A stretch of DNA of 60,871 nucleotides from NCBI GenBank assembly GCA_964611745.1, contig CAZTBE010000002.1, positions 1 to 60,871 on the forward strand. Direction: 5' to 3'. Position 1 is the stretch's first letter. Each line of letters opens with the position of its first letter. A program made the position numbers and the translations under genes. Shown piece after piece: positions 12,990-55,014 of the stretch. The notes beneath the pieces were generated by a model. The model saw only the letters and a program-made list of their open reading frames with translations, did no database searches and was not told where the DNA came from. This DNA comes from an uncultured Methanosarcinales archaeon. GTDB taxonomy: Archaea; Nanobdellota; Nanobdellia; Woesearchaeales; GW2011-AR4.

Positions 12990-13085
12990 TTTACTTTAAT
13001 TTTTAGTAATAAGAATATATTTAAATAGGTTATCCTTTTCCGTAGCCATTCGTCAATGAACTCCAAAACTACCGCCTAATATATC

Positions 13086-13138
13086 ATTTCACGCAAATCC
13101 CTTTTGGACATTTTCCCTTCGGGAAAACGTCGTGAAAT
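13086..13138. repeat. GC-rich palindromic element A
   Basis: TTTTCCC (13111-13117) pairs with GGGAAAA (13121-13127) around a 3-nt loop. This is flanked by ATTTCACG (13086-13093) and CGTGAAAT (13131-13138). The element lies between outward-facing TATA-like boxes. Confidence 0.8.
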
Positions 13139-13185
13139 CGCATACAATTAAATTACATTAAAACCGAATCAGAGCCAAAACGAAA

Positions 13186-14337
13186 GTGAAGAAAAAGAAT
13201 TATAAAGCATATTCTGTAGCATTAATTATAGTTTTGCTGACTATGAGTTTTTTCTATGGAGTTCTAGTCGGGGCATATAAATATTGGCCTTATAAATTAT
13301 TGCAGACAAATCACCAAAAGTTTTTTTCGAATGAATATGACTTAATATACGAGAAAATAGACCCCTTATATGAAAAAACAGACGTTTCTTCTTTGATTAA
13401 TATAGAAAATGAAAATGACATTCTGAAAAAAAGAAATAGCCTTATCCGGTATATATGGAAAGGCAAAGGACTCCCTTACTCCAAGTTCCCTGAAACTGTT
13501 GAAATAGACATAAAAGATGCCAGATATTCTGATTTAAATAACCTTAAGAGAATCGATAAACTTGTTATTACTATGGACTATGGTTTTAATTCAATTGTTT
13601 ACTTTTTTCACCCGGTTAAGAATAATAATAACCTTGTGATTTACCACCAGGGCCATGAGGGTGATTTTATATTTGGAAAAAGGACTATACAATTCTTTTT
13701 GGATAATGGATATGATGTAATGGCCTTTTCTATGCCCTTGTTGGGGATGAACAACCAGCCAATTGCGGAGTTACCATCATTTGGAGTGATAAAATTAACA
13801 TCACATGATCGTTTAGAACTTCTAGAATCATATGACTTTTCTCCAATTAAGCTTTTTTTAGAGCCTGTTGCTGTTTCTTTAAATTACGCAGAAAATTTTG
13901 ATTTTGATTCTATATCGATGATAGGCCTTTCAGGGGGAGGCTGGACAACTACACTATATTCTGCTATTGACCCAAGAATTTCTAAAAGCTATCCTGTTGC
14001 CGGAACCTTGCCAACCTATTTACGCTCAAAACGTAATTTAGGAGATTATGAACAACACTTACCAGAACTTTACAAAATTGCTAATTACCTGGAGTTATAC
14101 ATTATTGGGTCTTATGGCAATAACCGAAAACAGATTCAAATATTGAATAAATATGATGATTGTTGCTTTGCAGGAATTAATTATAAGACATATGAAAAAG
14201 AAGTTGAGATTACATTGGCCGAACTAGGAAAAGGAACCTTTAAAATATATTCAGATGATACACATGCAGAACATAAAATATCAGATAATGCACTAAATAT
14301 AATAAAAGAAGACCTTGATGAGGTGGATGGGAGTTAA
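13186..14337 (+). CDS. membrane-anchored alpha/beta-hydrolase-like esterase
   Basis: GTG start giving MKKKNYK plus one TM helix. HQGHEG and nucleophile-elbow-like GLSGGGW. Confidence 0.6.
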   Translation: MKKKNYKAYSVALIIVLLTMSFFYGVLVGAYKYWPYKLLQTNHQKFFSNEYDLIYEKIDPLYEKTDVSSLINIENENDILKKRNSLIRYIWKGKGLPYSKFPETVEIDIKDARYSDLNNLKRIDKLVITMDYGFNSIVYFFHPVKNNNNLVIYHQGHEGDFIFGKRTIQFFLDNGYDVMAFSMPLLGMNNQPIAELPSFGVIKLTSHDRLELLESYDFSPIKLFLEPVAVSLNYAENFDFDSISMIGLSGGGWTTTLYSAIDPRISKSYPVAGTLPTYLRSKRNLGDYEQHLPELYKIANYLELYIIGSYGNNRKQIQILNKYDDCCFAGINYKTYEKEVEITLAELGKGTFKIYSDDTHAEHKISDNALNIIKEDLDEVDGS

Positions 14338-14400
14338 GAAGATGGCTTCCTGGGCGGAGGTAAAGGATTAAATTTTGCAGTTAAAATGATTTCTCATAAG

Positions 14401-14410
14401 TTTTAAATAG
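14401..14410 (+). promoter_or_regulatory. archaeal-type TATA-like box for a near-leaderless transcript
   Basis: TTTTAAATAG is centred about 28 nt upstream of ATG 14433, with no ribosome-binding site between. Confidence 0.35.
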
Positions 14411-14432
14411 TGTAATTGAGTTCTGACACTAT

Positions 14433-15155
14433 ATGAAAACATTGATAACAGGCGGTAGTGGAGCATTAGGCAAATCACTGCAGAAAATTTTTAAGAATGC
14501 ATACTGCCCAACACATGAAGAGATGGATATAACCAATCCAGAGGCTGTTAACAAGGTTATCTTGGATTACAAGCCAGACATTTTGATACATACAGCAGCA
14601 TTTGTTGATATAAGGGGATGTGAAGAAAATAGAAACAAAGCATGGTCAACTAATGTTAAAGGTACGCAAAATATAGTGAATGCAGTAAAAAAACTGGATA
14701 ATAACTGCTATCTTATCTATATTTCCACAGCATGTGTTTTTGCCGGAGAAAATGAGAAATACTATACAGAGGATGATGCTCCAAAGCCGAAGAATTATTA
14801 TTCTACTACCAAATTAGAAGGGGAGGGAATTGTCAAGGAATATGAAAATTATTGCATTATAAGAACTAATTTTGTGCCAAAAGAACAATGGAAGTATCCC
14901 AAGGCCTTTGTTGACAGGTTTGGGACATACCTGTTTACAGATAATGTGGCTCAAGGCATATATGATGTCTGCGAAAAGAAGGAGAAGGGAATAATACATA
15001 TTGCGGGGGATAGAAGGATGAGCATGTATGAGCTTGCATTGCTTGCAGGATCAAAGAATCTTGGCAAGATGACTCTGGATGAGTATGACGGGCCAAGTGT
15101 TACAGTAGACATGAGCCTTTCTACAAAGAGATGGAAAAAATATAAAATAGAGTGA
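14433..15155 (+). CDS. short RmlD-like NAD(P)-dependent sugar reductase
   Basis: ITGGSGALGKSL, HTAAFVDIRGCEEN, STACVF, YSTTKLEGE. TTTTAAATAG box at 14401-14410. Confidence 0.7.
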   Translation: MKTLITGGSGALGKSLQKIFKNAYCPTHEEMDITNPEAVNKVILDYKPDILIHTAAFVDIRGCEENRNKAWSTNVKGTQNIVNAVKKLDNNCYLIYISTACVFAGENEKYYTEDDAPKPKNYYSTTKLEGEGIVKEYENYCIIRTNFVPKEQWKYPKAFVDRFGTYLFTDNVAQGIYDVCEKKEKGIIHIAGDRRMSMYELALLAGSKNLGKMTLDEYDGPSVTVDMSLSTKRWKKYKIE

Positions 15156-15185
15156 TAAAAAAGCTTATTTTTCTGTTAGACGCAG

Positions 15186-16238
15186 TTAAGTTTGTGTTTC
15201 TTTTGCCCATTCTATAAATCTTTTTATTCCGGTTTTCAAGTCTACTTTGGCTGTGTAATTCAGCTTTTCCTTTATTTTTGTTAGGTCTGGGCATCTCCTT
15301 TTTGGGTCTGCATTGGTATATGCATCTGTAGGCCCTTCAACATTTTCTATTTCCGGATTATTACCAAGAATTTCAGCAACATTTTTTGCTAAAGTTGCCA
15401 TATTAATCTCATTATCCTCATTTCCTACATTGAACGCTTCTCCATTATAGTCTGAAAATAAGATTCTAAAAAAACCCACCAACGCGTCTGTCACATAACA
15501 AAAGGTTCTTGTATTATTCCCTGCTCCATAGACGGGAATGGGCTTTCCTTGAAATACATTTGAAACAAAGTTGGGTATTACCCTATAATCATCTAATCTC
15601 ATCCCAGGCCCATATACATTAAAAGGTCTTACTGTCTTGACTGGGATTTTGTGAACCTGATAATAACCTACACAGAGAGTCTCTCCAAGCCTCTTGGACT
15701 CATCATAATTTGATCTTGGACCTGTACAGGAAACGTTCCCAAAATAAGTTTCCGGCGTAGGGACAGATTGCGGATCTGGGTCGCCATAAACTTCACTTGA
15801 GCTAAAATATAACATGCTCTTCACATTTTTTTCCTTTGCCAATTCAAGCATATTTTTTGTTCCAAAAACCCCTACATCGATTGTCTCTATTATGAACTTA
15901 CGATAAAACTTTGGGGATGCAATTCCTGCTGCACTTATGATATAATCTACATTTTCATCTATCTTTAAGGGTTTGGTAACATCATGTTTTATTGCTTTGA
16001 AATTACGCCCTTCCTCAAGGAGATAGCTTGACCCTGTTATGAAATTGTCGACAGAAATTATGCGGCAGGGGTTTTCAAGAACATTCTTGTTCAATTCTGC
16101 AAGAGTCAAAAGAAAATATCTTCCTAAAAATCCGGCGCCTCCAGTAATAAGGACGGTTTTTCCACTTAATTTACCGGCTTCTTTACCTATGTTCTCTACA
16201 ATTGTCTTTATATCTTCTTTTAAAATCTTACTTTCCAT
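15186..16238 (-). CDS. extended SDR, UDP-glucuronate decarboxylase-like epimerase/dehydratase
   Basis: ITGGAGFLGRYF, SSSEVYGDP, YDESKRLGE, PKRRCPDLTK. Confidence 0.85.
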   Translation of the reverse strand: MESKILKEDIKTIVENIGKEAGKLSGKTVLITGGAGFLGRYFLLTLAELNKNVLENPCRIISVDNFITGSSYLLEEGRNFKAIKHDVTKPLKIDENVDYIISAAGIASPKFYRKFIIETIDVGVFGTKNMLELAKEKNVKSMLYFSSSEVYGDPDPQSVPTPETYFGNVSCTGPRSNYDESKRLGETLCVGYYQVHKIPVKTVRPFNVYGPGMRLDDYRVIPNFVSNVFQGKPIPVYGAGNNTRTFCYVTDALVGFFRILFSDYNGEAFNVGNEDNEINMATLAKNVAEILGNNPEIENVEGPTDAYTNADPKRRCPDLTKIKEKLNYTAKVDLKTGIKRFIEWAKETQT

Positions 16239-16244
16239 TTTATG

Positions 16245-16637
16245 TTAAACCAACTTGAATTTTTTTGTATGATCTGAAAAATTTTGCGTATCTCTTTGTC
16301 CCGTAGTTAGGTTGAGCATGACAGAATCTTCCAAAAATCTCATTGCATGGGCTATCATAGGTGGTGTTATAACTAAGTCTCCAGCATTAATAATCGTCTT
16401 CTCTATTTTTTCATCCTTATTGTTCAGGTTTTTGGTGGTGCTTTCATATTTGCCGCTAATCAGGTATTCATACTGTACTTGTTTAGGATGATAGTGATTT
16501 GCTCTGATAGAGCCTTTTTTTGAGGTGATGATTGCAATATGTGTTATTGGCTCTTCTAGAATATTTGCTATTACTCCCCTTTCATCCTCAAATGCAGGTT
16601 CAATTTTTATTACTTTTTCATTAGCCATCTGTTCCAC
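16245..16637 (-). CDS. small cupin, sugar-nucleotide keto-isomerase/epimerase-like (FdtA/WxcM-like)
   Basis: 130 aa. DERGVIANIL, HYHPKQ, AHAM cupin His pattern. GGGGGTGG ribosome-binding site upstream. Confidence 0.55.
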   Translation of the reverse strand: MEQMANEKVIKIEPAFEDERGVIANILEEPITHIAIITSKKGSIRANHYHPKQVQYEYLISGKYESTTKNLNNKDEKIEKTIINAGDLVITPPMIAHAMRFLEDSVMLNLTTGQRDTQNFSDHTKKFKLV

Positions 16638-16699
16638 CCCCGTCCAAATCCTAATTTTTGGTCAAATCTTTATATAATATTACAATTTTTTATTTAAAT

Positions 16700-17920
16700 C
16701 TATGCTATCTTGGGTTCTGGTAAAGGTATTATAAATTTTACTCCCTGATCAGCATATTTTCCTGTTTTTTTTAAAATTTCTTCGGCAAAATTCCATGCAA
16801 GAATTAAAATATAATCTGGTCTTTTCTTCTCTAACATGCTTGAGCTTACAACTGGAATATGCGTTCCTGGTGAATATAAACCTATCTTTAAAGGATTGTC
16901 ATCAACAATATAATCAATAAAATCCCTACCAATATTGCAGAAATTCAGCAATGTAGTTGATTTTGCAGGAGCGCCATACCCAGCAATTGACTTTTTCTGT
17001 GCTTTTATATCCCTGATGTAAGATACTAATCTCTCTTTTACATGATAAACCTTATTTGAGAAATTTTTATAAATTTCTATATCATTGATTCCAATGCCTT
17101 TCTCATATTCCAATGTCTCTTCAACCTCTTTATGAATCTCGTGGTTTCCTTCAGACTTTTTTATAAATACTCTTAAAGAACCCCCGTGGCTGTCTACTCT
17201 TTGAACATCAAATATCTCCATCCTGTGTTTTTTAAAGAAATAACTTAATGAAGTGAGAGTGTAATAAGAAAGATGCTCGTGATATACATTATCAAAAGTC
17301 ATTTTTTCCATAGTGTCTACTAAATACTGGACTTCAATAACAAATATACCATCTTCCTTAAGCAGAGTTTTTACATTGTCTGTAACATTATCAATATCAT
17401 CAATGTGGGCAAAGACGTTATTTGCAGTTACTACATCAGCATGCCCTTTTTTTCCTATAACCCTTTTTACCGCATCATTGTTGAAAAAACCATTTATAGT
17501 TTCAATGCCATCCTGCTCTGCAATTTTCACTAAATTTGCAGCAGGTTCAATACCCATCGTTTGGATTCCTAATTTCTGAAAATTTTTTAGTAAAAGCCCA
17601 TCATTACTTCCAATATCAACAACTAAAGAACCGTTATTTAAATTAAAACAATTGCATATGTCCCTAGCCATTTTAGAAAAATGAATCTTAAAAGTATTTG
17701 ACGTAGACGATACATATATATAATTTTTGAACATCAGTTCCGGAGGCACAACATAAGTCAATTGCACCAACTTGCAATTATCACAGAAAGCTAATTCTAA
17801 AGGATAGGTGTTCTCTTTATTTTCCAATTCTTCTTTTGAAAGAAAACTATTAGCTAAAGGACTTTTCCCCAATGAAAGAAATACCTTTATAGCCTCATTT
17901 CTACAAATTCTGCATATCAT
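16700..17920 (-). CDS. NDP-hexose C-methyltransferase-like SAM enzyme (zinc-ribbon N-terminus)
   Basis: CRICRN...CDNCKLVQL, VDIGSNDG, NVFAHI, HEHLSYYT. Collinear with 10052..11302. Confidence 0.8.
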   Translation of the reverse strand: MICRICRNEAIKVFLSLGKSPLANSFLSKEELENKENTYPLELAFCDNCKLVQLTYVVPPELMFKNYIYVSSTSNTFKIHFSKMARDICNCFNLNNGSLVVDIGSNDGLLLKNFQKLGIQTMGIEPAANLVKIAEQDGIETINGFFNNDAVKRVIGKKGHADVVTANNVFAHIDDIDNVTDNVKTLLKEDGIFVIEVQYLVDTMEKMTFDNVYHEHLSYYTLTSLSYFFKKHRMEIFDVQRVDSHGGSLRVFIKKSEGNHEIHKEVEETLEYEKGIGINDIEIYKNFSNKVYHVKERLVSYIRDIKAQKKSIAGYGAPAKSTTLLNFCNIGRDFIDYIVDDNPLKIGLYSPGTHIPVVSSSMLEKKRPDYILILAWNFAEEILKKTGKYADQGVKFIIPLPEPKIA

Positions 17921-18052
17921 CGTGATTGGTACAACTGTATAATTTATAAATCATTCGTTGAACAAACTTACAGTAACTATACTCGCAGACAAAAGTTTTT
18001 ATATAATAGTTGTCTACTCCTAATAAGCAAATGACATATTTACATATACAGT

Positions 18053-18110
18053 GGGAAAATCTGTGAAATGCGAGTGAGCTCGCGAACTCGCTCACAATTC
18101 ACGATTTTCC
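18053..18110. repeat. GC-rich palindromic element B, related to element A
   Basis: GGGAAAATCTGTGAAAT (18053-18069) is the near reverse complement of AATTCACGATTTTCC (18096-18110). The arms enclose a GC-rich inner hairpin, GTGAGC (18074-18079) with GCTCAC (18090-18095). Confidence 0.8.
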
Positions 18111-18180
18111 GAGGTTTACTTTCAGTAAACAATTTGTGTCATTTGCTATATTAAAAGCATTACTATTCCTCCTTAATAAG

Positions 18181-19194
18181 ATGGGAAAAATAAATATAGG
18201 CATTATAGGGCTGGGAAGATTTGGAAAAAATTATCTTAGAACGTTTAATGAACTAGATAATGCTCTTGTTACATGGGTCTGTGCAACAAAAGAAAGCACC
18301 ATAAAAGAAGCAATTTCGAAGATAAAAACAAAAGTACCTATAAAAACTACAACAAACTATGAGGATGTTTTTGGTGATAGTGAAGTGGATGCGGTGGCAA
18401 TAGTCACACCAGGATCTACACATTTTTCTCTGGCAAAAGAAGCTCTTAAATGCAATAAACACGTTATTGTGGAAAAACCTTTAACTTTATCCTCAGATGA
18501 TGCAAAAGAATTGGTAAAAATATCAAATGCTGCAAAAAAAATCTTGATGGTTGGCCACATTCATAGATTTAATCCAGCAATTAAAAAACTCAAAGAAGAT
18601 ATAAAAAGCGGAATATTTGGAAAAATCAATTATATCGAGTATACTCATTTGGGCAATGGCCCTGTAAGGAAAGATATTAATGCGCTATGGGACTTTTTTC
18701 CACATGTGCTGTCAATCCTGTTTTATCTTCTTGAAGATCTGCCCTTGAAAGTAAATGCAAATGGAGCCTCTTTTTTGCAGAAAGGCATAGAAGATGTTGT
18801 AACCATGGATCTTACATTTCCCAACAATATCTTTGCAACTGCGATTGGAAGCTGGCTATACCCAGTAAAAAAAATGGGCATTGTTATTGTCGGAGAAAAG
18901 CTTTATGCAACTTTTGATGACTATTTAACAGAAGAGAAACTAAAATATTATAGTAATAATTCCAAGCTTATTGATGGAAAATTAATAAAGGTGGATAAGA
19001 GATATAGTGTTCCATTTATTGAGAATGATAAACCTTTAACTGAACAATTAAAACATTTTTTAAATTGTATCAAATACAATAAGATTCCAGTAACAAATGG
19101 TAATGAAGGTTTAAAAGTAGTAAATGTTTTAGAAGCTGCCCAAGAATCCTTAAACAATAACGGTGCTCCAGTTAAAATTAATGCTTCTTTCTAG
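18181..19194 (+). CDS. Gfo/Idh/MocA family sugar oxidoreductase
   Basis: INIGIIGLGRFGKNY Rossmann motif and VEKPL motif. The ORF opens at GTG 18136, but ATG 18181 sits about 29 nt after a CTATATTAAAAG box. Confidence 0.8.
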   Translation: MGKINIGIIGLGRFGKNYLRTFNELDNALVTWVCATKESTIKEAISKIKTKVPIKTTTNYEDVFGDSEVDAVAIVTPGSTHFSLAKEALKCNKHVIVEKPLTLSSDDAKELVKISNAAKKILMVGHIHRFNPAIKKLKEDIKSGIFGKINYIEYTHLGNGPVRKDINALWDFFPHVLSILFYLLEDLPLKVNANGASFLQKGIEDVVTMDLTFPNNIFATAIGSWLYPVKKMGIVIVGEKLYATFDDYLTEEKLKYYSNNSKLIDGKLIKVDKRYSVPFIENDKPLTEQLKHFLNCIKYNKIPVTNGNEGLKVVNVLEAAQESLNNNGAPVKINASF

Positions 19195-19915: not shown

Positions 19916-19931
19916 CTTAACTCCATATTGA

Positions 19932-21419: not shown

Positions 21420-21522
21420 TATAAAATTTACGAAATAATAATTTTTCTGCTATTATCAACTGAATTTCAGATGGAATATTAAGCTTAGTATTTATGGTTT
21501 ATGGAATATATTTATTGATTTT

Positions 21523-22785: not shown

Positions 22786-22936
22786 TTATGATAGAGTTTC
22801 CGAATTGTATATTTAAAATTATCTGAATATTTGAATTCTGCCGTTAAAGTGAATCTTCCATTCATAAAAACAACGCATATATAATTTAAAATTTTCAATC
22901 AAAAACCTTATATATCTTCCTTTTATACCTCGCTAT

Positions 22937-24439: not shown

Positions 24440-24490
24440 CATAATAAAAATATTTTTAAATTCCATATTTCTGCTTTTCCCTATATAAAA

Positions 24491-28906: not shown

Positions 28907-28977
28907 AGTCTGGAATAATCTATAGTATATTTTAAAGGTTTCTGCTTTGATGGAGGTTGGTGCGAAAATCTAATATT

Positions 28978-29083
28978 AAGCTAAGCTATGCCAGAGCGGA
29001 CTGAAGCCAAAATACTAATTTTAAGTTCATATTTGAGGTGATCCTGCCCACCCGCCACCCCTAAATTAGGCATAGCTTGGCTT
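28978..29083. repeat. 106-nt element bounded by a 15-bp inverted repeat (element C)
   Basis: AAGCTAAGCTATGCC (28978-28992) versus GGCATAGCTTGGCTT (29069-29083). There is one mismatch, which is a T-G wobble on the + strand. The interior is GC-rich (CCTGCCCACCCGCCACCCC). Confidence 0.75.
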
Positions 29084-29117
29084 TATTTATTCGACAAATG
29101 TTCTTCAATTACAACTA

Positions 29118-29130
29118 AATATTTATAAAT
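29118..29130 (+). promoter_or_regulatory. archaeal-type TATA-like box
   Basis: AATATTTATAAAT is centred about 22 nt upstream of ATG 29147. Confidence 0.3.
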
Positions 29131-29146
29131 CCGGTAAATTAGCCTA

Positions 29147-41292: not shown

Positions 41293-41359
41293 TTTAATAT
41301 CAACTTTGTATTTGTTTCTGGCAACACATGAAGATATTTAAACCTTTATACAAATTCCA

Positions 41360-41538
41360 ACTAGGAACGGCTGCGTTCAAAATCTCGCTACGCTTGGGTT
41401 GCCATCGGTTCGCATTTGATTTCATTAAGTTAAGGCTGCCACCCCCGTAAGGGACTTCCCCCCGGCAGCTTCATGTATCTTATTAAAGATGCTCACAAAT
41501 TGATGGCAACCTACATTTTGAACGCAGCCACTAAGAAC
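41360..41538. mobile_element. MITE-like rod-shaped palindromic element D with TSD-like flanks
   Basis: Perfect 15-bp terminal inverted repeat GGCTGCGTTCAAAAT (41369-41383) with ATTTTGAACGCAGCC (41515-41529). Second perfect 10-bp inverted repeat GGTTGCCATC (41397-41406) with GATGGCAACC (41502-41511). Flanking direct repeat ACTAGGAAC (41360-41368) and ACTAAGAAC (41530-41538). No transposase in the window. Confidence 0.4.
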
Positions 41539-41597
41539 AAAAACTATTTAAAACTAGGAAGATTCTTGGATTAATCCAGATTATAGCAGGGATTGGA

Positions 41598-45331: not shown

Positions 45332-45348
45332 AAAATTTAAATATGCAC
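45332..45348 (+). promoter_or_regulatory. TATA-like box plus conserved TGCAC (shared promoter 17-mer, copy 2)
   Basis: AAAATTTAAATATGCAC lies about 35-45 nt upstream of ATG 45382. Confidence 0.4.
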
Positions 45349-45381
45349 ATATATTCTTAATCGAGATTTAGGTGAAAATTT

Positions 45382-46800: not shown

Positions 46801-46920
46801 GTCTTCAATTCTTCGTTCATTATGAATTAACAGAAATAGGGACCAGATTTAAAAAATAAGAATGTTCGATAAGTATATTTTACCTAATATTTTATAAATA
46901 CATCACCTTTAGCTTGACTT

Positions 46921-47781: not shown

Positions 47782-47782
47782 A

Positions 47783-49690
47783 ATGTGCGGGATTTGTGGC
47801 TTTAATTTTTCAGATAGAGCTCTTCTAAGAAGTATGAATGATTGTATATCGCATAGAGGTCCAAATTCTAAAGGATATTTTACTGATAAATATATTTCAT
47901 TAGGACATAGAAGGTTGAGCATAATAGATTTAACCAAATCAGGCAACCAGCCAATGTTCAATGAGGACAAATCCATAGTCCTTATTTACAATGGGGAGTT
48001 ATACAATTTTAAAGAAATAAAAAAATCATTACAGGAAAAAGGACATTCATTTTCCTCTAATACCGATACAGAGGTTGTTGTGCATGCGTATGAGGAGTAT
48101 GGGACAAACTGCTTAAATCATTTTAACGGATTTTTTAGCTTTGCATTATATGATTCAAAAAAGAAAATACTATTTCTAGCAAGGGATAGGATAGGAATAA
48201 AACCTTTGTATTATTACTATGATCAAAAAAAATTTATTTTTGCTTCAGAGATAAAGTGCATACTGGAAGATGAAACTGTTAAAAGGGATATTAATAAAAA
48301 TTCCTTAAATGAATATTTTATGTTCAGGTATGTGCACAGCAATGAAACCATATTGAAGAATATCTATAGGGTTAAGCCAGGATGTATGCTCCTGTTTAAT
48401 TGCAAAAATAATAAACTAGATATTAAAAAATATTGGGATGTTTCAATTGAGAATAAAAATTATGATGAAAATATTTGTGCCAAAAATATTTTTGAGCTAT
48501 TTAGGGATTCTGTGGAAAGAAGATTGATGAGTGATGTGCCTTTGGGTGTTTATCTTAGCGGAGGAATAGATTCCTCTTCGGTTGTAGCTATGATGAAACG
48601 GTTTGGTGTTAAGAATATAAATACTTACTCAGTAGGTTTTCAATATGATGTCTTAGGTAATGAGCTAGAATATGCCAAAAAAGTTTCTGATATTTTTGAA
48701 ACAAAGCACCATGAATTTATAATAAAGCCAGATATAATTAAGGAACTGCCAAAAATAGTGTGGCATCTGGATGAACCATTGGCAGATCCGGCTGTAGTTC
48801 CAATATACTTCCTATCAAAAGAAGCTGCAAAGAGTGTTACTGTCATTTTATCAGGGGATGGGGCAGATGAACTGTTTGCAGGCTATGATCAATACAAGTT
48901 TACAGCTTTAGGAAATAAGATAAGATTTTTGCCTAGAATGATTAGGAAAAATCTTATACCCCTGACTGTTAAAGCATTGCCTAAGCAATTACTGGATAAA
49001 ATCTATAAGTATTCTAGTACAACAGGCTCTAAAATCCATGAGAGGTTTGGAAAATTTATATCCAGTGTAAATGAGAATAAAGCAAAAGCATATCTTGAAG
49101 TAATTTCTGTATTTGATGAAGATGAAAAGAATAAACTTCTAAATGATTCTTATAAGTCTAAAAATCCTTATTTGCTTCTGAATAAGACATATTTTTCAAA
49201 TCATAAAGATTTCCTGAATCAACTGACCTACATGGACCTTAAGACTTATCTTCCCGAGGATTTACTCATGAAGCCAGATAAGATGTGCATGGCCTTCGGC
49301 ATAGAAGCGAGGGTTCCTTTTCTTGACCATAGGCTTGTAGAGTATGCATTTAATATGCCTTCTAGATTAAAATTAAAGGGCAATACCACAAAATACATAA
49401 TGAAAAAATCATTCAAAAATCTGTTGCCTTATGATATATTACACAGAAAAAAACAGCCTTTCCAAGTGCCATTGGATCAATGGATGTCAAAAGACCTGAA
49501 AGATTATTTTAGAAATTTAATAGAGGATAAGATTAATGATAAATTCTTTAACAAAAATTACATTAAAAAAATATTAGATAACTATAACCGCTCAAAATTG
49601 TTTTATGGAAGACAGATTTGGAGCTTAGGGATATTTAATATTTGGCACAAGATTTATGTTGAGGAAGAAAATATTTCTAATATCTTCTAA
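47783..49690 (+). CDS. asnB: asparagine synthase (glutamine-hydrolysing) family amidotransferase
   Basis: MCGICGF N-terminal nucleophile Cys and SGGIDSS PP-loop. 635 aa. The start lies 1 nt after the upstream stop. Confidence 0.9.
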   Translation: MCGICGFNFSDRALLRSMNDCISHRGPNSKGYFTDKYISLGHRRLSIIDLTKSGNQPMFNEDKSIVLIYNGELYNFKEIKKSLQEKGHSFSSNTDTEVVVHAYEEYGTNCLNHFNGFFSFALYDSKKKILFLARDRIGIKPLYYYYDQKKFIFASEIKCILEDETVKRDINKNSLNEYFMFRYVHSNETILKNIYRVKPGCMLLFNCKNNKLDIKKYWDVSIENKNYDENICAKNIFELFRDSVERRLMSDVPLGVYLSGGIDSSSVVAMMKRFGVKNINTYSVGFQYDVLGNELEYAKKVSDIFETKHHEFIIKPDIIKELPKIVWHLDEPLADPAVVPIYFLSKEAAKSVTVILSGDGADELFAGYDQYKFTALGNKIRFLPRMIRKNLIPLTVKALPKQLLDKIYKYSSTTGSKIHERFGKFISSVNENKAKAYLEVISVFDEDEKNKLLNDSYKSKNPYLLLNKTYFSNHKDFLNQLTYMDLKTYLPEDLLMKPDKMCMAFGIEARVPFLDHRLVEYAFNMPSRLKLKGNTTKYIMKKSFKNLLPYDILHRKKQPFQVPLDQWMSKDLKDYFRNLIEDKINDKFFNKNYIKKILDNYNRSKLFYGRQIWSLGIFNIWHKIYVEEENISNIF

Positions 49691-50655
49691 TTATTGTTAC
49701 TTGCTCTGTTTTTTACATACCACTGGCAGAATAATCTTATTCCTTCTTCTATTCCTACTTTTGGATTGTAATTGAGCAGCTCTTTTGCTGTTCTTATGTC
49801 AGCATAAGTTCGTTCCATGTCCCCAGGAATAGGTTCTCTTGCAATTATTTTTGCCTTTTTGTTCAAATTTTCTTCAATCAGACTAATGAGTTTCCTGAGT
49901 TCTATAGGATTACTGTTTCCTATGTTTATTATTTTGTATTCTGTCTTAAGATCCAAACTTTGTATTATGCCGTAAACTATGTCTGTTATGTAGGTGTAAT
50001 CCCTTTTGGATGTTCCATCACCATAGACCTCTATTTCCTGATTATTGAATATTCTCTCAGTAAATTTATAATGTGCCATGTCCGGCCTTCCATTAGGACC
50101 ATAAACTGTAAAGAATCTTAGGCAGACTATAGGCAATCTATAAATGTTATGATAAGCACTACACAACACCTCTGCAGCCTTTTTTGTTGCCCCATAGGGC
50201 GATATTGGGTTATCTGTGTTGTCTTCTTCAGAAAAAGGTATCTTTTTATTATTTCCGTATACACTTGAACTTGACCCAAAAATAAATTTTTTGCATTTAT
50301 GGTGGCTTGCGAGCTCAAGCAGATTTAAAGTGCCTTTGACATTTACGTCTTCATAAATTAAAGGATTGCTTATACTGTATCTTACACCTACCATAGAAGC
50401 CAGATGAATTATCTTGTCTATCTTGTTTTCCTGAAAAACTTGTTTAAGGCTATTTTTGTCTGTTATGTCGCATCTATAAAGTTTTATCTTCAAATCTTTG
50501 ATATTCTCTTCCTTGAATTTTGGATTGTAGTAGTCATTAAAGTTATCTATTCCTATAATGCTGCAGTTATCTTTTTTGAGAAGTTCTTTAGCTACGGAAC
50601 TGCCTATAAAACCAGCAATACCTGTGATTAATATATTCATTTTTGAAATGAACAC
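49687..50655 (-). CDS. extended SDR, UDP-glucuronate 4-epimerase-like
   Basis: ITGIAGFIGS, YGATKKAAE, RFFTVYGPNGRPDMA (matches the RFFTVYGPWGRPDMA signature I recall for GlcA 4-epimerases). GTG start. Confidence 0.8.
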   Translation of the reverse strand: MFISKMNILITGIAGFIGSSVAKELLKKDNCSIIGIDNFNDYYNPKFKEENIKDLKIKLYRCDITDKNSLKQVFQENKIDKIIHLASMVGVRYSISNPLIYEDVNVKGTLNLLELASHHKCKKFIFGSSSSVYGNNKKIPFSEEDNTDNPISPYGATKKAAEVLCSAYHNIYRLPIVCLRFFTVYGPNGRPDMAHYKFTERIFNNQEIEVYGDGTSKRDYTYITDIVYGIIQSLDLKTEYKIINIGNSNPIELRKLISLIEENLNKKAKIIAREPIPGDMERTYADIRTAKELLNYNPKVGIEEGIRLFCQWYVKNRASNNN

Positions 50656-50707
50656 CGCATGTTATTTAAAATTTATTGATATAAAGGAAGGATTAAGTTC
50701 TAAAAAC

Positions 50708-51403
50708 TTAGTCCATAATCCTATATTTTATTAGATAAAATACTGCTTTTATTCCGTCCTTCCATGTTATCTTTTTGCCTTCATTAAATTTTCTTCCTAC
50801 AAAATTAATCGGGATTTCTGTTATTTTATAGCCTTTCTTGAGAATTTTGGCTGTAATTTCCGGTTCAAAGTCAAAGCGTTTTGCTTTTAAATTCATATTT
50901 TCTATCACTTCTTTCCTGAATACTTTATACCCTGTTTCCATATCAGTTATTTTTGTTCCGTATAATATGTTTGTAACTGCTGTAAGAAGCATATTGCCTA
51001 AATAATGAAGCTTATACATGTTTTTTATGTTCTCTCTAATTGCTTCTATCCTGGAACCATAGACCACTTTTGTTCTATTTTCCATTATTGGTTTTAACAA
51101 TTTTGCATATTCTATTGGATTGTATTCCAAATCAGCATCCTGAATTAGGATTATATCTCCAGTTGCATGTTTTAAAGCAGTCCTTATCGCAGTTCCTTTT
51201 CCCCTATTTTTTTGGTGGAAAAATATCTTTAAGCTAGAGTCTTTTAATTCTGACAGGATTTTTTTTGTGTTATCTGTTGAAAAATCATCAACAATAACAA
51301 TCTCTTTTGTTATGTCTTTTAATTCAGTTCTTTTTACTTTGCTGATTACTTCTAAGATATTGTTTTCTTCGTTGTATACTGGGATTATTATTGATAATTT
51401 CAT
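50708..51403 (-). CDS. GT2, polyprenyl-phosphate sugar synthase-like
   Basis: IIIPVYNEENNI, VDDFSTD, QDADLE. 231 aa. Confidence 0.85.
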   Translation of the reverse strand: MKLSIIIPVYNEENNILEVISKVKRTELKDITKEIVIVDDFSTDNTKKILSELKDSSLKIFFHQKNRGKGTAIRTALKHATGDIILIQDADLEYNPIEYAKLLKPIMENRTKVVYGSRIEAIRENIKNMYKLHYLGNMLLTAVTNILYGTKITDMETGYKVFRKEVIENMNLKAKRFDFEPEITAKILKKGYKITEIPINFVGRKFNEGKKITWKDGIKAVFYLIKYRIMD

Positions 51404-51448
51404 CTATAGTGTAGAATAATAAGGTATTTTAAAAGTTATTGGTTAGAA

Positions 51449-51991
51449 TCAATTACCTTTATGCAACTCAATAATCTTTTTTATCAAATCAGTTGTGGAA
51501 TAGCCTTTAACCTCAGGTATTAAAATTATCTTGCCGTTATTTTTTTCTACAGTGTCTTTTTCAATTATTTGGTCCATCTTGTAGTCCCCGCCTTTGGCAT
51601 GAATATTTGGTTTTATTTCTTCAAGAAATTTTATTGGGTTGTTTTCACTGAATATTGTCACATAGTCAACACATTCTAACGAAGCAAGAGCTTCTGCTCT
51701 ATCATTTTCGTGGTTTAATGGCCTTTTTTGTCCTTTAATTTGTTTTGTTGATAAATTAGAGTTTATAGCTACAATTAAAACATCTCCTAGCTTTTTTGCT
51801 TCTTTTAAATATCTTATATGGCCGATATGCAGAATATCAAAGACACCATTTGTTGTTACAACTACCTTATTCTCTTTTTTTAGGTCTTCAACTATATTTT
51901 TTAGTTCACTCGAAAAAACAATCTTTTTTCGGTGTCCCGAAAAGCTTTGCTTTTCTAGGACGTCAATAGTTTTTATTTTTTGTTTTTCCAT
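51449..51991 (-). CDS. hldC: D-beta-D-heptose 1-phosphate adenylyltransferase (RfaE domain II-like cytidylyltransferase fold)
   Basis: TNGVFDILHIGHIRYL, GDVLIVAINS, KGGDY. Confidence 0.8.
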   Translation of the reverse strand: MEKQKIKTIDVLEKQSFSGHRKKIVFSSELKNIVEDLKKENKVVVTTNGVFDILHIGHIRYLKEAKKLGDVLIVAINSNLSTKQIKGQKRPLNHENDRAEALASLECVDYVTIFSENNPIKFLEEIKPNIHAKGGDYKMDQIIEKDTVEKNNGKIILIPEVKGYSTTDLIKKIIELHKGN

Positions 51992-52027
51992 TTTCTGCCA
52001 TTAATTTTTATCAAATCTATTATATTA

Positions 52028-52579
52028 TTATTGCTTTTTATTGTTCATAATAAAATCAGCAGCTTTGAAAAAATCTTCAGCAATAAAATCAGGCTTTAGA
52101 CCTTTTTTTCCCAGATTCTCAAAATGCTTTTTACCATGGCCAGTTAGCATATAGACATTTCTGCAATTAGCCTTCACTCCCATCTCAATATCATGCAGGT
52201 GATCTCCTATCACCCAGGAGTTTTTTATGTCTATGTCGAATTCCTTTGCTGCTTCCTCGATGTATTTTGTGCTTGGCTTTCTGCAGTCACAACTTTCCTC
52301 TTTTTTATGCGGACAATGATATATTTTTTTTATATCTATACTTCCTTTTTTCAACTCATCAATCAGTTTTTCATTGAATTTTCTCATATCTTCCTCTGTA
52401 TACATTCCTAATCCTATGCCGGATTGGTTTGTTATGATAACAAAAATAAATTCACCTGAAAGAGCTTTTAACCCTTCTATTACTCCTGGCAGCAGTTTGA
52501 AATCTTCCACTTTGTAGACATAATAATTTGGGTCCTCTACTAAAGTTCCATCCCTGTCCAGATAAATAGCTTTAACCAT
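52028..52579 (-). CDS. gmhB: D,D-heptose 1,7-bisphosphate phosphatase (HAD)
   Basis: YLDRDGTL HAD motif I and Zn-finger-like CPHKKEESCDCRKP. ATG 52579 overlaps the upstream stop (ATGGTTAA). The ORF track opens at TTG 52606. Confidence 0.8.
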   Translation of the reverse strand: MVKAIYLDRDGTLVEDPNYYVYKVEDFKLLPGVIEGLKALSGEFIFVIITNQSGIGLGMYTEEDMRKFNEKLIDELKKGSIDIKKIYHCPHKKEESCDCRKPSTKYIEEAAKEFDIDIKNSWVIGDHLHDIEMGVKANCRNVYMLTGHGKKHFENLGKKGLKPDFIAEDFFKAADFIMNNKKQ

Positions 52580-53543
52580 TTTCAATGCTCTTTTTAAGCT
52601 CTTCAATACTTACTGTAGATGTCCCTATCTTTCCTACTGTTATGCCTGCTGCATGATTAGCTATTATGGCGGCTTCTTCAAATGAAGCTCCTGATGCTAA
52701 AGCTAATGTTAGGGTAGCAACAGATGTATCTCCTGCACCAACAATATCATAGACCTCTTTGGCAAATGTTGGTATACTTGTGATTTTTCCATCTTTTTCA
52801 AACAGAGACATGCCTTTTTCCCCTTTTGTTATCAAAACATTGCTGTCTAGCTCTTTTAACAGTTCTTTTCCAATCTTTTCTGCATTAGCATCTGACTCTT
52901 CTTCAATACCAGCCATCTCATACGCCTCTTTATGGTTTGGTGATATCAGAGTAGCATTTTTATAGAACTCTTTGTGCTTTGGTTTCGGGTCAACTACAAT
53001 TATCTTATTTTTTTCCTTGCAAAGTCCTATTACCTTTTCCACCAGGTTTTTTGTTATTACACCTTTTGCATAATCTGAGATTATGATTGCATCAATTTCA
53101 TCTATTTTTTTGTAAATGAAGTCAAGAATATCATTTTCTGTTTTAACATCAACATAACCTTTCTTTTCATAATCAAATCTTAGCAATTGCTGATTTCTTC
53201 CAAAGACCCTGACTTTCTGTATGGTTCTTTCATTTCCATCTTCTATTAAACCACTTACATCTATACTTCTTTTTTTAAGCTCGTCTATTAATTTGTTTTT
53301 TGTTGAATCTTTTCCAACAACACCTATCATGAATGATTTTGCATTTAAAGCTGCTATATTATTTGCTACGTTTGCAGCGCCTCCTGGAGTATAGCTTTCT
53401 TTGATAACATTGACAACCTGGACAGGAGCTTCCGGGCTTATTCTTGAAACACTGCCCCAGATATATTTGTCCAGCATAACATCCCCTAAGACTATGATTT
53501 TTTTATTTTTGAATTGCTCAATAACTCTAATTAAATTATTCAT
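52572..53543 (-). CDS. hldA: D-beta-D-heptose 7-phosphate kinase (RfaE domain I, PfkB family)
   Basis: VLGDVMLDKYIWGSVSRISPEAPV, GGAANVANN, GAGDT. ATG 53543 overlaps the hldD stop (ATGAATAA). Confidence 0.8.
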   Translation of the reverse strand: MNNLIRVIEQFKNKKIIVLGDVMLDKYIWGSVSRISPEAPVQVVNVIKESYTPGGAANVANNIAALNAKSFMIGVVGKDSTKNKLIDELKKRSIDVSGLIEDGNERTIQKVRVFGRNQQLLRFDYEKKGYVDVKTENDILDFIYKKIDEIDAIIISDYAKGVITKNLVEKVIGLCKEKNKIIVVDPKPKHKEFYKNATLISPNHKEAYEMAGIEEESDANAEKIGKELLKELDSNVLITKGEKGMSLFEKDGKITSIPTFAKEVYDIVGAGDTSVATLTLALASGASFEEAAIIANHAAGITVGKIGTSTVSIEELKKSIENG

Positions 53544-54447
53544 TTTCCCACCCATTTTCATCTAACCAATTAAAATAATCTTTAATACTTTCTTTTAATG
53601 GCCATTTTGCCTTAAAGCCAAGAATATTTTCTGCTTTTGTTGTGTCTGCCTGTGTATCAGCTTGGTAAGTTTTAGGATCATAAGGCATGTCAAAATATTC
53701 TGTTTTGAGATTTTTTCCTAAAACATCATTTAAAACTTTAATTAAATCATTGAAGGTTGTTGCAATGCCTGTTCCTACATTATAAATTCCGCTTTTTGCA
53801 TTTACTGCTTTGATAGTAGCATTGACAGCATCTTTGACATAAATATTGTCGCGTTTTTGCTCGCCAAGTTTAAAAATTCTTGGATTTTTTCCAGCTTTAA
53901 TTTGTTTGCCTAAATGATATATCATAGATGCTGGACGTCCTTTATACGCTTCTCTAGGGCCGAAAACATTAAAGTATCTTAATCCTACAATGTGCATGTC
54001 GTCAAATAATTTTTCTGCCATATTATCCATTTCTAGTTTTGATTTTCCATAAGCACTTAGAATTTCTTTTTTCTGGCCTTCTTTCATTGGAACTTGCCCA
54101 TTACCATATAACCCTGCTGTTGATGCGTAAATTAATTTGGCATTGTTGTTTTTTGCAAGCTCTATTATATTTTTGAAACCTTGTATATTCTTATTGTAAG
54201 TTTCCTCATCATTTGGATATCTTGGATCAGTTATTGCAGCTTCATGGAAAATCACATCAAATTTTTCATTAAGCTCAAATGATTCTGAAACATCTAATTC
54301 AATAATTTTACCTTTAAAACCATTTAAATTATTTTTATTTCCAGAATTTAAATTGTCAACTATTGTGACTTCATGCCCTTGTTTTTCTAGTTCTAAAGCT
54401 AAATTAGAGCCTATAAAACCTGCACCACCTGTTACTAAGCATTTCAT
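53536..54447 (-). CDS. hldD: ADP-L-glycero-D-manno-heptose 6-epimerase-like SDR
   Basis: VTGGAGFIGSNL, HEAAITD, YGKSKLEMD. 303 aa. The start overlaps the cupin stop (ATGA). Confidence 0.75.
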   Translation of the reverse strand: MKCLVTGGAGFIGSNLALELEKQGHEVTIVDNLNSGNKNNLNGFKGKIIELDVSESFELNEKFDVIFHEAAITDPRYPNDEETYNKNIQGFKNIIELAKNNNAKLIYASTAGLYGNGQVPMKEGQKKEILSAYGKSKLEMDNMAEKLFDDMHIVGLRYFNVFGPREAYKGRPASMIYHLGKQIKAGKNPRIFKLGEQKRDNIYVKDAVNATIKAVNAKSGIYNVGTGIATTFNDLIKVLNDVLGKNLKTEYFDMPYDPKTYQADTQADTTKAENILGFKAKWPLKESIKDYFNWLDENGWENE

Positions 54448-54803
54448 TTTGGCAGCTCCAACTTGTCTAAATCAACTTTTCCTGATAATTCATCGCGGTA
54501 TGAATCAGAATCTTCATGATGTGTTGAGAATTCTATTATTTCACTGGGTTCTAAGCCTGTAAAGCGGTGTTTTGTATTTGGTGTTATAAGGATAGAATGC
54601 CCAGGAAGCATTATCTGTTTTTTATTGTCAGTTTCCATTAAGACCTTGCCTGCTAGTATATAGAATGTTTCATCCTTGTTTTTGTGGTAATGCATTGAGC
54701 ATCTGAAACCTTTATTTAGGATTAACTTTTTTCCGCAATAATTTCTATTGGCAATTATTTCTTCATGACCCCATACTTTCTTAACTATCTTATGTTCTGT
54801 CAT
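54444..54803 (-). CDS. cupin, phosphomannose-isomerase-type (candidate sedoheptulose-7-phosphate isomerase)
   Basis: 119 aa. WGHEE, SMHYHKNKDETFYILAG, TKHRF. First gene of the heptose operon. Confidence 0.6.
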   Translation of the reverse strand: MTEHKIVKKVWGHEEIIANRNYCGKKLILNKGFRCSMHYHKNKDETFYILAGKVLMETDNKKQIMLPGHSILITPNTKHRFTGLEPSEIIEFSTHHEDSDSYRDELSGKVDLDKLELPK

Positions 54804-54853
54804 ATTAGTATGAATAGTTCATACTTCTAGTATATAAATGTTTCGTTATTGTA

Positions 54854-54963
54854 CGTGCCCGTACAACAGCGTATTGGGGTGTCTCAGACACCCCGAGACC
54901 GCAACATCAGGAGCTGTCTCGGATCGTGCAGTGCGAAGCACTGTACACTAGTGTGCGGGTACG
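54854..54963 (+). ncRNA. candidate structured RNA or structured DNA element E (four-way junction)
   Basis: Closing stem 54854-54865 with 54952-54963 (12 bp, 2 G-U). Hairpin GGGGTGTC/GACACCCC (54876-54894). Hairpin GAGAC/GTCTC (54895-54920). Hairpin GTGCAGTGC/GCACTGTAC (54926-54946, 1 G-U). The wobble pairs work only on the + strand. No known RNA family recognised. Confidence 0.3.
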
Positions 54964-55014
54964 CATAAATAGAAAAATATATAAAGTATGAACTTATACT
55001 ACTATTTTATACCT

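Follow-up and report, generated by a model that had tools for sequence, protein, structure and literature searches.

REP sequences, which like RAYTs are known from Bacteria, share a conserved GT[AG]G head and depend on RAYT Y1 transposases for their mobility. Pneumococcal BOX and neisserial Correia (NEMIS) elements are built from reusable hairpin modules in varying number, lie near promoters, and have documented effects on promoters or RNA processing. In AT-rich archaeal genomes, GC-rich islands are a classic signature of RNA genes. Prokaryotic MITEs are small (under about 500 bp), non-coding, multi-copy and mostly intergenic, have terminal inverted repeats (TIRs) and target-site duplications (TSDs) of fixed length, and vary in presence between strains. 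In a census of archaeal MITEs, about 89% lay in intergenic DNA and a Woesearchaeal genome, with about 105 MITEs per Mb, was among the richest (PMC11602168). IS903B, whose inverted repeat sequence is given in PMC10569121, generates 9-bp direct repeats (PMC10569121, PMC9769513).

The window analysed here (the whole 60,871-nt stretch of DNA) comes from a marine Woesearchaeota-like (DPANN) archaeon: homologues of one flanking protein are named Woesearchaeota or Nanoarchaeota, and the window was found in marine metagenomes. The host genome has a GC content of 32.5%. The gene map of the window contains exactly seven divergent spacers, with the same coordinates as in an earlier note on this DNA, and five of them hold a GC-rich self-complementary island between the two TATA-like boxes. 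The 50-nt GC maximum is 0.48 for island 1 (12990-13185, a marginal case), 0.52 for island 2 (17921-18135), 0.56 for island 3 (28907-29146), 0.60 for island 4 (41293-41597) and 0.62 for island 5 (54804-54987); the two island-free divergent spacers (22786-22936 and 58293-58526) peak at 0.32 and 0.36. All remaining spacers in the window peak at 0.40 or below save 59460-59648, at 0.48, and that peak is coding: it belongs to a 58-aa ORF (59456-59632) with an ATGA overlap with the upstream stop. Gene map and GC scan together confirm the earlier note's count, with islands in five of seven divergent spacers and in no other spacer class of the window. The TATA-like boxes, read from the sequence, do lie outside the inserted segments at every island.

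The claim that all five islands are self-complementary fared less evenly. For islands 2, 4 and 5 the fold is much more stable than in shuffled sequence (z of -5.6/-6.3, -7.5/-4.2 and -5.4/-4.8, respectively), whereas island 1 is marginal (-1.5/-1.8) and island 3 has an 18-bp stem yet a weak overall z (-1.0/-2.3). Intragenic GC peaks and both island-free divergent spacers showed no structure (z of -0.5 to +1.3). A Fisher test of 5/7 occupied divergent spacers versus 0/7-8 among the others (90 nt or longer) yields p ~0.007-0.01, and placement proportional to spacer length gives p ~0.005, both for a pattern that was spotted and tested post hoc. The inserted segments are shorter than whole spacers (88-161 nt: 18043-18130, 28952-29110, 41369-41529 and 54849-54964), and the density of islands is 5 elements in 60.9 kb, or ~82 per Mb.

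With a probability of roughly 80%, we take these islands to be insertions of non-autonomous, non-coding, GC-rich hairpin-forming repeats, members of a nested "mobilome" common to Woesearchaeota-like DPANN archaea. That they are small mobile palindromes had been proposed from the sequence, and three kinds of observation now back the proposal: insertion polymorphism (islands 2, 3 and 5), multiple copies with exact ends and varied flanks (island 2, the interior of island 3, and island 4), and TIRs with a 9-bp TSD (island-4 family). The comparison with related genomes suggested in the earlier note finds islands 2, 3 and 5 absent from close relatives in metagenomes. As far as we found, these repeat families have not been individually described in the literature.

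Island 4 (41369-41529, + strand) is a 161-nt MITE with 15/15-bp TIRs (41369-41383 and 41515-41529, GGCTGCGTTCAAAAT), flanked by the duplication ACTAGGAAC at 41360-41368 and ACTAAGAAC at 41530-41538, an 8/9 match. In metagenomes its arms reach 5-10 times the depth of the flanks, with loose ends precisely at 41368 and 41529; no empty allele of the locus was seen in these data. Here as elsewhere, excess depth counts copies in the element's own genome and in other community members indistinguishably. Its termini have 21 exact matches among species genomes, 15 of them in Woesearchaeota/Nanoarchaeia MAGs. The family to which it belongs is multi-copy within single genomes of Woesearchaeota/Nanoarchaeia MAGs, marine ones and others (on multiple contigs in several of them), and its members are 161-331 nt long, with 15-bp TIRs, 9-bp TSDs and no ORF; 12 full copies were found at first and 15 following a profile search. 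The duplications are perfect at loci L024 (two copies), L034 and L040 and near-perfect in the window and at L028, L029, L030 and L036. The family termini (GGC...) share 12-13 of 18 positions with the IS903B inverted repeat, a similarity of short sequences only (the L051 terminus, GGCAGTGTTGAAAATCTC, has 13/18 in common with GGCTTTGTTGAATAAATC), and the 9-bp TSD is common to both. In all these respects, and in its mostly intergenic location, the family resembles prokaryotic MITEs and in particular those of the IS5/IS903 type. Unlike MITEs, it carries other hairpin modules nested in its loops, and its interior, which in island 4 itself contains a further covarying helix and, at the centre, a hairpin tipped by CCC-GUAA-GGG, is asymmetric, conserved and covarying.

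Island 3 (28952-29110) is composite: an outer element whose left terminus (GGAGGTTGGTGCGAAAATCTAAT) is intact and whose right terminus is degenerate holds a different module within. The island is absent from a ~88% identical strain, where the empty-site joint runs from 28951 to 29111 with one base between. Its left terminus matches, at 23/24 positions, the left end of an element at L016:4956-5102 that has 13-bp terminal repeats (GGTTGGTGCGAAA) and an 8-bp duplication (GGTATTTT) and is missing in L019; the TSD of island 3 itself is weak (5/8). The L016 element lies in a co-directional spacer, where it provides the stop codon of STT3. The terminus shared by these two (GGTTGGTGCGAAAA) is identical to an IS5-type terminus (GGAAGGTGCGAACA) at 11/14 positions, and family members link the outer end of island 3 and island 4 into one common terminal-repeat type. 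The inner module (28975-29086) has an 18-bp stem (inverted repeat I23, 28975-28992 with 29069-29086), and its core, 28985-29067, is a high-copy repeat (depth 100-320 vs 6-21), the loose ends of which lie at 28984/5 and 29067/72. Sequences related to this interior are found at L083:4448-4512 and L024:3039-3084.

Both island 4 and island 3's outer shell would be classical MITEs, with TIRs and TSDs of 9 or 8 bp. From their IS5-family-like termini (IS903-like for island 4), we infer that a DDE transposase with its gene at another locus most likely mobilises them in trans. An IS903-type tblastn search of ~0.6 Mb of loci (each of at most 20 kb) gave no match, a further difference from MITEs with a cognate transposase; no autonomous IS or transposase with matching ends was found in these loci, and the neighbouring genes are ordinary.

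Island 2 (18043-18130) consists of a palindromic element (18053-18110) and a small second hairpin (18113-18130). Close relatives do not have it; at that position they carry TGTACA or 15 nt of AT-rich sequence (joints 18042->18131 and 18036->18131, in metagenome contigs with near-identical flanks). It has no TSD, and the inserted segment replaces sequence of the empty allele; for islands 2 and 5 the replaced stretch is 6-26 nt, which is no textbook cut-and-paste footprint. Its core hairpin module (18063-18102, GTGAAATGCGAGTGAGC-TCGCGA-ACTCGCTCACAATTCAC) is near-invariant and high-copy: 40 nt in the window and ~42 nt in most copies, it reaches a depth of 220-414 vs 14-20 in the flanks, has loose ends into many differing flanks, and is matched through the 20-mer of its right half at 52 metagenomic loci. 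As a ~40-nt GC-rich imperfect palindrome that is high-copy, intergenic, near-invariant and also found in composite arrangements, this core resembles REP, BIME and REPIN sequences, and its 5′ head, GTGAG or GTGAA, is reminiscent of the REP head. Unlike REPs, for which no such property is described, it is found nested in loops, both those of other families and its own. The unit adjoins housekeeping genes; among the seven recurrent neighbour proteins tested, none is RAYT-like or IS200/IS605-like, all being either ordinary (LeuRS, SepF, a CBS-domain protein, a transporter) or without a confident Pfam match.

Island 5 (54849-54964, + strand) is a 116-nt segment with three hairpins inside a 12-bp closing stem (54854-54865 pairing to 54952-54963; two of the pairs are G.U on the + strand). 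It is identical across 10 independent public contigs and differs by 2 substitutions in an 11th. In relatives with 87-90% identity in the flanking protein, 24-26 nt of AT-rich sequence stand there instead (joints 54848->54965/54967), and no TSD is present. Only modules of this island, never the whole, recur elsewhere: 54865-54899 and 54907-54969 are found in other contigs, and a further match lies at L086:2889-2942. The island 2 core, island 3's interior and island 5's hairpins would be reusable modules, found nested in each other as well as elsewhere, as a rule at the apex of a hairpin that was already there. Parallels are BOX and NEMIS, with one to three hairpins for island 5 and a shell plus an interior for island 3, and a location near promoters in both cases; sequences and hosts are unrelated.

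Island 1 (13086-13138) is a weak, single-copy nested hairpin, ATTTCACG ... TTTTCCC-TTCG-GGGAAAA ... CGTGAAAT. Its arms and those of island 2, read from the sequence, have the motifs GGGAAAA and GTGAAAT in common, 3-4 nt apart and in swapped order; an 18-mer search matched island 1 only and missed island 2, in which the motif spacing is 1 nt shorter. Four metagenomes show flat depth, zero joints and zero further copies for island 1, which is probably a decayed relative of island 2. The five islands had been assigned to at least four unrelated types. Within the window they indeed have no direct mutual similarity, but the terminal-repeat type shared by island 4 and the outer end of island 3, and the arm motifs shared by islands 1 and 2, leave the count of unrelated types unconfirmed.

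The inference that divergent spacers may be the only tolerated landing sites is not supported by the relatives, which carry the elements in co-directional and convergent spacers too, roughly in proportion to the space available. Sites of the island 2 module are 18 co-directional, 8 divergent and 3 convergent (baseline spacers 133/46/15), and island-4 family members are co-directional at L023, L030 and L040 and convergent at L024 and L034. Since the AT-rich DNA between outward-facing TATA boxes could be extended and still leave every gene, promoter and operon intact, insertions there would be tolerated by selection and presumably neutral; this would explain why the islands of the window lie where they do. 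The enrichment in divergent spacers inside the window is nominally significant, which counts against this account.

Some of these observations could also be accommodated if the islands (the island-4 family and the island 2 module at the least) were structured small RNA genes or folded single strands whose fold is selected and which are only incidentally mobile. We consider this unlikely. Covariation in the island-4 family speaks for it: across 13 copies, 92% of cells are paired and 14/32 pairs have changed on both sides, the central hairpin included although it is no terminal repeat; 0/500 shuffles match the real value and slid controls reach 28-46%. The alignment rows are related, so the cells are not independent, and a DNA inverted repeat yields an identical signal: both ends of a palindrome may co-evolve with one transposase, or be matched by hairpin repair. 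The tip is GNRA-like (GUAA or GUGA), MAGs from a number of unrelated sampling projects keep the asymmetric interior, and at L086:2889-2942 two compensatory changes are seen in hairpin 1 of island 5. The excess of G.U over A.C cells on one strand (37 to 15) is only suggestive. A conserved, covarying interior is not needed by a transposase that uses the termini alone, and to that extent counts against a pure MITE reading. As strongly folding GC-rich islands in a 32.5% GC genome, these elements do look like the non-coding RNA islands of other AT-rich archaea, but they differ from them in having no conserved synteny and no Rfam match: no covariance model came at or near its gathering score, and hits were at chance level. 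Islands 4 and 5 are found in no RNA run, and the island 2 unit is randomly oriented relative to flanking genes at co-directional sites (10 same, 8 opposite). TSDs, variable presence and multiple copies point to transposition of DNA rather than to fixed RNA genes.

Still less probable, in our judgement, is a regulatory role for the islands as operators, insulators or roadblocks that coordinate or separate divergent glycosylation blocks; insulators and operators, along with small RNAs, were the alternative offered in the earlier note. Speaking for such a role are their location precisely between two TATA-like boxes, where glycosylation gene blocks border, and the occupancy of 5/7 divergent spacers. 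However, the orthologous promoters of relatives (L016-L022) do without island 5 in a spacer of 89-92 nt with both halves conserved, and islands 2 and 3 likewise have empty alleles. The modules also flank unrelated genes, among them those for LeuRS, SepF, the CBS-domain protein and the transporter; relatives' copies occupy co-directional and convergent spacers; and the five islands have no common motif for a single regulator to recognise.

That the whole pattern is due to chance, or to composition or assembly, we regard as barely credible: there are only five events, noticed post hoc and with island 1 marginal, and relatives show no preference for divergent spacers, but the fold energies of islands 2, 4 and 5 lie far beyond shuffles, the within-window association has p ~0.01, and an assembly artefact, which the earlier note had named as a possible undoing of the pattern, is largely refuted because the islands recur in independent contigs (individual metagenome contigs run across islands 1 and 2, others across islands 3 and 5).

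Nested mobile hairpin repeats, an ordinary kind of selfish DNA, remain the best account of these islands; their confinement to divergent spacers in this window is probably a local outcome of tolerance and small numbers and reflects no targeting rule.

The window carries five GC-rich folded islands, each within a divergent spacer: island 1 (13086-13138), island 2 (inserted segment 18043-18130), island 3 (28952-29110), island 4 (41369-41529) and island 5 (54849-54964). In agreement with the earlier note, a mechanical gene map exactly reproduced the seven divergent spacers that it listed, the five that it named as island-bearing reach a maximum GC content of 0.48-0.62 per 50-nt window, and, by reading of the sequence, the TATA-like boxes of both neighbouring genes lie outside every inserted segment. 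The two divergent spacers that it described as empty are unstructured, with maxima of 0.32 and 0.36, and all remaining spacers stay at or below 0.40, the sole exception (59460-59648, at 0.48) being coding. A 58-aa ORF there (59456-59632, MKKVQNLTSSNIGIRGGIQGAFPIYGWYAPFCVINWATKFFADALLLELYPEIHIKIV) overlaps, as ATGA, the stop codon of gene 58527-59459, which is (alpha/alpha)6-barrel / C5-epimerase-like; it looks like the detached C-terminus of that upstream protein, and the pair may represent a split or frameshifted gene. The same ORF fills most of the sole long convergent spacer. At the other end of the window, a GC-rich peak at 280-329 is explained by a small 98-aa ORF (142-438), hydrophobic and membrane-like, upstream of a phosphodiesterase gene.

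Compared with shuffled sequences, the fold z-scores are -5.6/-6.3 for island 2, -7.5/-4.2 for island 4 and -5.4/-4.8 for island 5; island 3 has an 18-bp outer stem with a weak overall z, and island 1 is marginal (-1.5/-1.8). The controls, namely intragenic GC peaks and the two empty divergent spacers, were unstructured. For a pattern that was noticed post hoc, islands in 5 of 7 divergent spacers versus none of the 7-8 others of at least 90 nt correspond to a Fisher p of ~0.007-0.01, and a length-proportional placement model, with the same post hoc caveat, to p ~0.005. The islands are not assembly artefacts: single metagenome contigs run across islands 1 and 2, across island 3 and across island 5, and the last is identical in 10 independent public contigs, with two substitutions in an 11th. 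BLAST among the five islands within the window found no direct similarity, the links between them being visible only through other members of their families.

The surrounding 60.9 kb (32.5% GC) is a dense surface-glycosylation gene cluster encoding GT2, GT9 and PMT_2 glycosyltransferases, sulfatases, B12-radical-SAM enzymes, an NDP-sugar pyrophosphorylase, a cupin, an epimerase and an asparagine synthase; no tRNAs were found in it. The window occurs near-verbatim in ~20 metagenome runs (marine, seawater and hydrothermal-vent), the identical locus is present in MAG GCA_030751015.1, and homologues of one flanking protein have names such as 'Candidatus Woesearchaeota archaeon' or 'Nanoarchaeota archaeon'; the source is therefore a marine DPANN archaeon and not a thermophile. 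An initial assignment to Sulfolobales or Thaumarchaeota, prompted by GC content, TATA-box layout and leaderless-looking promoters, was rejected on these protein names and on the genomes matched by the island-4 termini. Between 40000 and 56000, some metagenome contigs leave out blocks and others bring together parts of the cluster that lie far apart in the window (53892 is joined to 42835, for instance, through 33 other bases), and the spacer edges are the end points of many of them. Co-occurring strains evidently differ in their arrangement of gene blocks in this glycosylation region.

When metagenome contigs were aligned to each spacer, islands 2, 3 and 5 proved to be insertions. Strains with near-identical flanks skip 18043-18130 and have either TGTACA or 15 AT-rich bases in place of island 2, and a ~88% identical strain skips 28952-29110, with one base between the two flanks of island 3. 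At island 5, in the divergent spacer between the cupin and NTP-transferase genes, relatives skip 54849-54964 and carry 24-26 AT-rich bases there; where the NTP-transferase on a contig is 87-90% identical, the island is lacking and an orthologous spacer of 89-92 nt keeps both promoter halves almost base for base. The start of this NTP-transferase varies by public record, at 54988 (258 aa) or 55015 (249 aa), and a different TATA-like box therefore serves the gene depending on the choice. Among these contigs, island 1 showed flat depth and no variant, and no empty allele of island 4 was seen at this locus. Relatives that lack islands 2 and 5 have, in their place, short AT-rich stretches that are small palindromes in their own right (TGTACA; TATATACTATAGTATATA), which fits a habit, as yet unproven, of insertion at the centre of pre-existing palindromes.

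Island 4 belongs to a family of MITE-like elements. Its arms are present at 5-10 times the depth of the flanks, and contigs diverge into varied AT-rich sequence precisely at 41368 and 41529. A scan for its two termini in one genome per species found 21 loci, 15 of them in MAGs of Woesearchaeota/Nanoarchaeia, obtained by several unrelated sampling projects (with up to five contigs of one MAG matched), and 6 in bacteria, versus ~9 expected by chance. The copies are non-coding, 161-331 nt long, begin with GGCTGCGTTCAAAAT and end with ATTTTGAACGCAGCC, and are flanked by 9-bp direct repeats. These repeats are perfect at four copies (CATTATTAT, AATAATTGC, TACTCTTTA and TTTAAAAAC) and near-perfect at several others, including the one in the window (ACTAGGAAC/ACTAAGAAC). 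A profile search added three further marine copies, with differing yet complementary termini (GGCAGTGTTGAAAAT, GGGTTGTTGCGAAAT). In viral contigs the island-2 unit described below was absent, and the single match to an island-4 terminus was a bacterial chance match, the one also represented by locus L033.

Island 3 leads to the same superfamily through its left end, GGAGGTTGGTGCGAAAATCTAAT, which matches at 23 of 24 positions the left terminus of a ~145-nt element on a related marine contig (L016:4956-5102). Bounded by 13-bp terminal repeats and an 8-bp GGTATTTT duplication, this MITE-like element is missing from the corresponding spacer of locus L019. Of 17 positions in the terminus shared by island 3 and L016, 16 are the same in the L083 variant of the island-4 family, which places island 4 and the outer shell of island 3 in one superfamily. 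The L016 element is inserted at the extreme end of the STT3/AglB oligosaccharyltransferase gene, to which its right end supplies the stop codon; the protein is one residue shorter than in the reconstructed empty site (...QNTQ* becoming ...QNT*). The interior of island 3 (28985-67) is high-copy on its own, and related interiors occur within an element with island-4-type termini. That element (L024:2915-3096) is the second of two lying ~120 nt apart in L024:2578-3096 and is a chimera of families: its termini are of island-4 type and its interior is like the inner module of island 3.

A further high-copy module is the ~40-nt core of island 2 (18063-18102), at a depth of 220-414 versus 14-20 in the flanks. 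Across many metagenome projects, TARA-type marine records among them, the 20-mer of its right half occurs at 52 loci, and the unit's commonest form, GTGAGATGCGAGTGAGCTCGTTGCGAACTCGCTCACAATTCAC, is almost invariant. Among the related loci, L051, L083 and L085 have this unit in the central hairpin of the island-4 family, at its GUAA tip; in L048/L084 and L065 it adjoins a right terminus of the L016-type family; L083 has it within an island-3-type interior; and in L063, L080 and L095 it is nested in the loop of another copy. In the last three loci, a second GC-rich hairpin, sometimes unit-like, sits in the unit's own loop, a self-nesting at the hairpin tip. In L083:4035-5131, an archaeal RNase P RNA gene (Rfam, 132 bits) directly adjoins two nested elements, the first an island-3-type interior with the unit and the second an island-4-family copy with the unit in its central hairpin. 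Outside the unit, the stem gave 7.0 pairs per 10 versus 6.4 in controls in a test of copy specificity, a comparison made uninformative by the GAAAAT/ATTTTC motif common to most copies. Island 1 carries the arm motifs of island 2, GGGAAAA and GTGAAAT, as an inverted pair that lacks the core and is spaced by 4 nt rather than the 3 nt of island 2, and we infer that it is a decayed relative. Island 5 is low-copy; its modules 54865-54899 and 54907-54969 match other contigs with other flanks, and in L086:2889-2942 there is a version with a single hairpin, hairpin 1 showing two compensatory changes. The idea that the modules are tRNA introns was rejected, as tRNAs with long introns in L037 and L085 lack them. 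Rfam tRNA matches of 107-153 nt at L037:6656-7004 and L085:9156-9262, not called by ARAGORN, are probably intron-bearing tRNA genes whose introns are unrelated to the repeat modules.

Among relatives, the confinement to divergent spacers does not hold: the island-4 family, the L016 element and the island-2 unit all occur in other spacer classes. With flanking ORFs scored by codon usage, the island-4 family lies at six divergent sites (the window, L028, L029, L036, L037, L038), three co-directional (L023, L030, L040) and two convergent (L024, with two tandem copies, and L034). The L016 element is in a co-directional spacer by the database's own gene calls. Sites of the island-2 unit are co-directional in 18 cases, divergent in 8 and convergent in 3, against a baseline in the same loci of 133/46/15 spacers (64/27/9% by length), and in the co-directional sites its orientation relative to the flanking genes is random (10 same, 8 opposite). 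A family-blind screen of the other spacers in the related loci (GC peak plus 120-nt fold) found GC-rich islands in all three classes, as a coarse survey that truncates long elements and uses rough gene calls: a known L016 gene was missed, and tRNAs or missed genes account for some hits. Any divergent-spacer excess is thus at most mild and limited to one family, and the clean pattern in the window is a local outcome. A tolerance argument is nonetheless reasonable: a stretch flanked by two outward-facing TATA boxes is presumably not transcribed and can be lengthened without necessarily disturbing either promoter; insertions in genes or tight operon junctions would be purged.

As for the mover, the inverted repeat of IS903B, an IS5-family element with 9-bp direct repeats (GGCTTTGTTGAATAAATC; PMC10569121, PMC9769513), agrees with the terminus of the marine island-4 subfamily, GGCAGTGTTGAAAATCTC, at 13 of 18 positions and with that of island 4 itself at 12 of 18, and the IS5-type sequence GGAAGGTGCGAACA agrees with the island-3/L016 terminus GGTTGGTGCGAAAA at 11 of 14. 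This likeness, together with the 9-bp duplication, favours an IS5-family DDE transposase acting in trans as the most likely mover; the terminus types relevant to such a partner would be the GGCTGCGTTCAAAAT and GGTTGGTGCGAAA types. A tblastn search of all related loci (~0.6 Mb) with an IS903-type protein from E. coli found no transposase gene, and the elements' neighbours are ordinary genes. The proteins that recur beside the island-2 unit were considered as mobility genes and rejected, being syntenic housekeeping genes. Islands 2 and 5 lack duplications, each replacing a few bases of the empty allele, and the recurrent hairpin-tip placement is the sole clue to how they insert.

We regard as possible, albeit improbable, a reading in which the single-stranded fold of the island-4 family and the ~40-nt module is their selected, functional part, either as a MITE-borne structured RNA or in a hairpin-tip-targeting system moving as folded single-stranded DNA, which would resemble a REP/RAYT-like or IS200/IS605-like mechanism of a kind so far undescribed in DPANN archaea. 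It would account for the GNRA-like tip, for a module that hardly varies across 52 loci and many metagenome projects, for the nesting of modules in one another's loops and for the covariation of non-terminal helices. In the island-4 family, pairing reaches 92%, with 14 of 32 pairs changed on both sides, a level reached by none of 500 shuffles (slid controls, 28-46%); the covariation extends beyond the terminal repeats to the central hairpin, and on one strand there are 37 G.U versus 15 A.C cells. However, the same covariation is expected from a DNA inverted repeat, and the aligned rows are related. Rfam searches (the window at gathering score, islands 2, 4 and 5 at E<=10, and ten related loci) gave no match overlapping the elements, none of the RNA runs searched for islands 4 and 5 contains either, and the context and orientation of the elements are not conserved. 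The suggestion that the islands are operators or insulators of the flanking promoters is not supported, as they are absent from close relatives' orthologous promoters and the same modules adjoin unrelated genes (LeuRS, SepF, transporters).

The mobile palindromes that the earlier note had offered in its first reading are borne out, by insertion polymorphism, exact ends in multiple copies and target-site duplications. Elements of this kind are already known: in a census of prokaryotic MITEs, they are present in 20% of archaeal genomes, ~89% of those MITEs are intergenic, and a Woesearchaeal genome is among the densest at ~105 per Mb (PMC11602168), in line with the five elements in 60.9 kb of the window (~82 per Mb). 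No individual description appears to exist of these families, of their modular nesting or of their spread in marine and other Woesearchaeota. In annotation, the islands are to be masked or labelled as repeats rather than as sRNA genes or regulatory sites, and they explain why assembly of these DPANN populations is interrupted at the promoter gaps of the glycosylation region, where many contigs stop at island edges. What emerges is that very small archaeal genomes house non-coding elements as an active, modular mobilome, its families common to marine and other Woesearchaeota/Nanoarchaeia MAGs and metagenomes, and that its insertions extend the divergent promoter regions of a hypervariable surface-glycosylation cluster; if the fold were functional, DPANN archaea would have in these families new structured mobile RNAs or DNAs.
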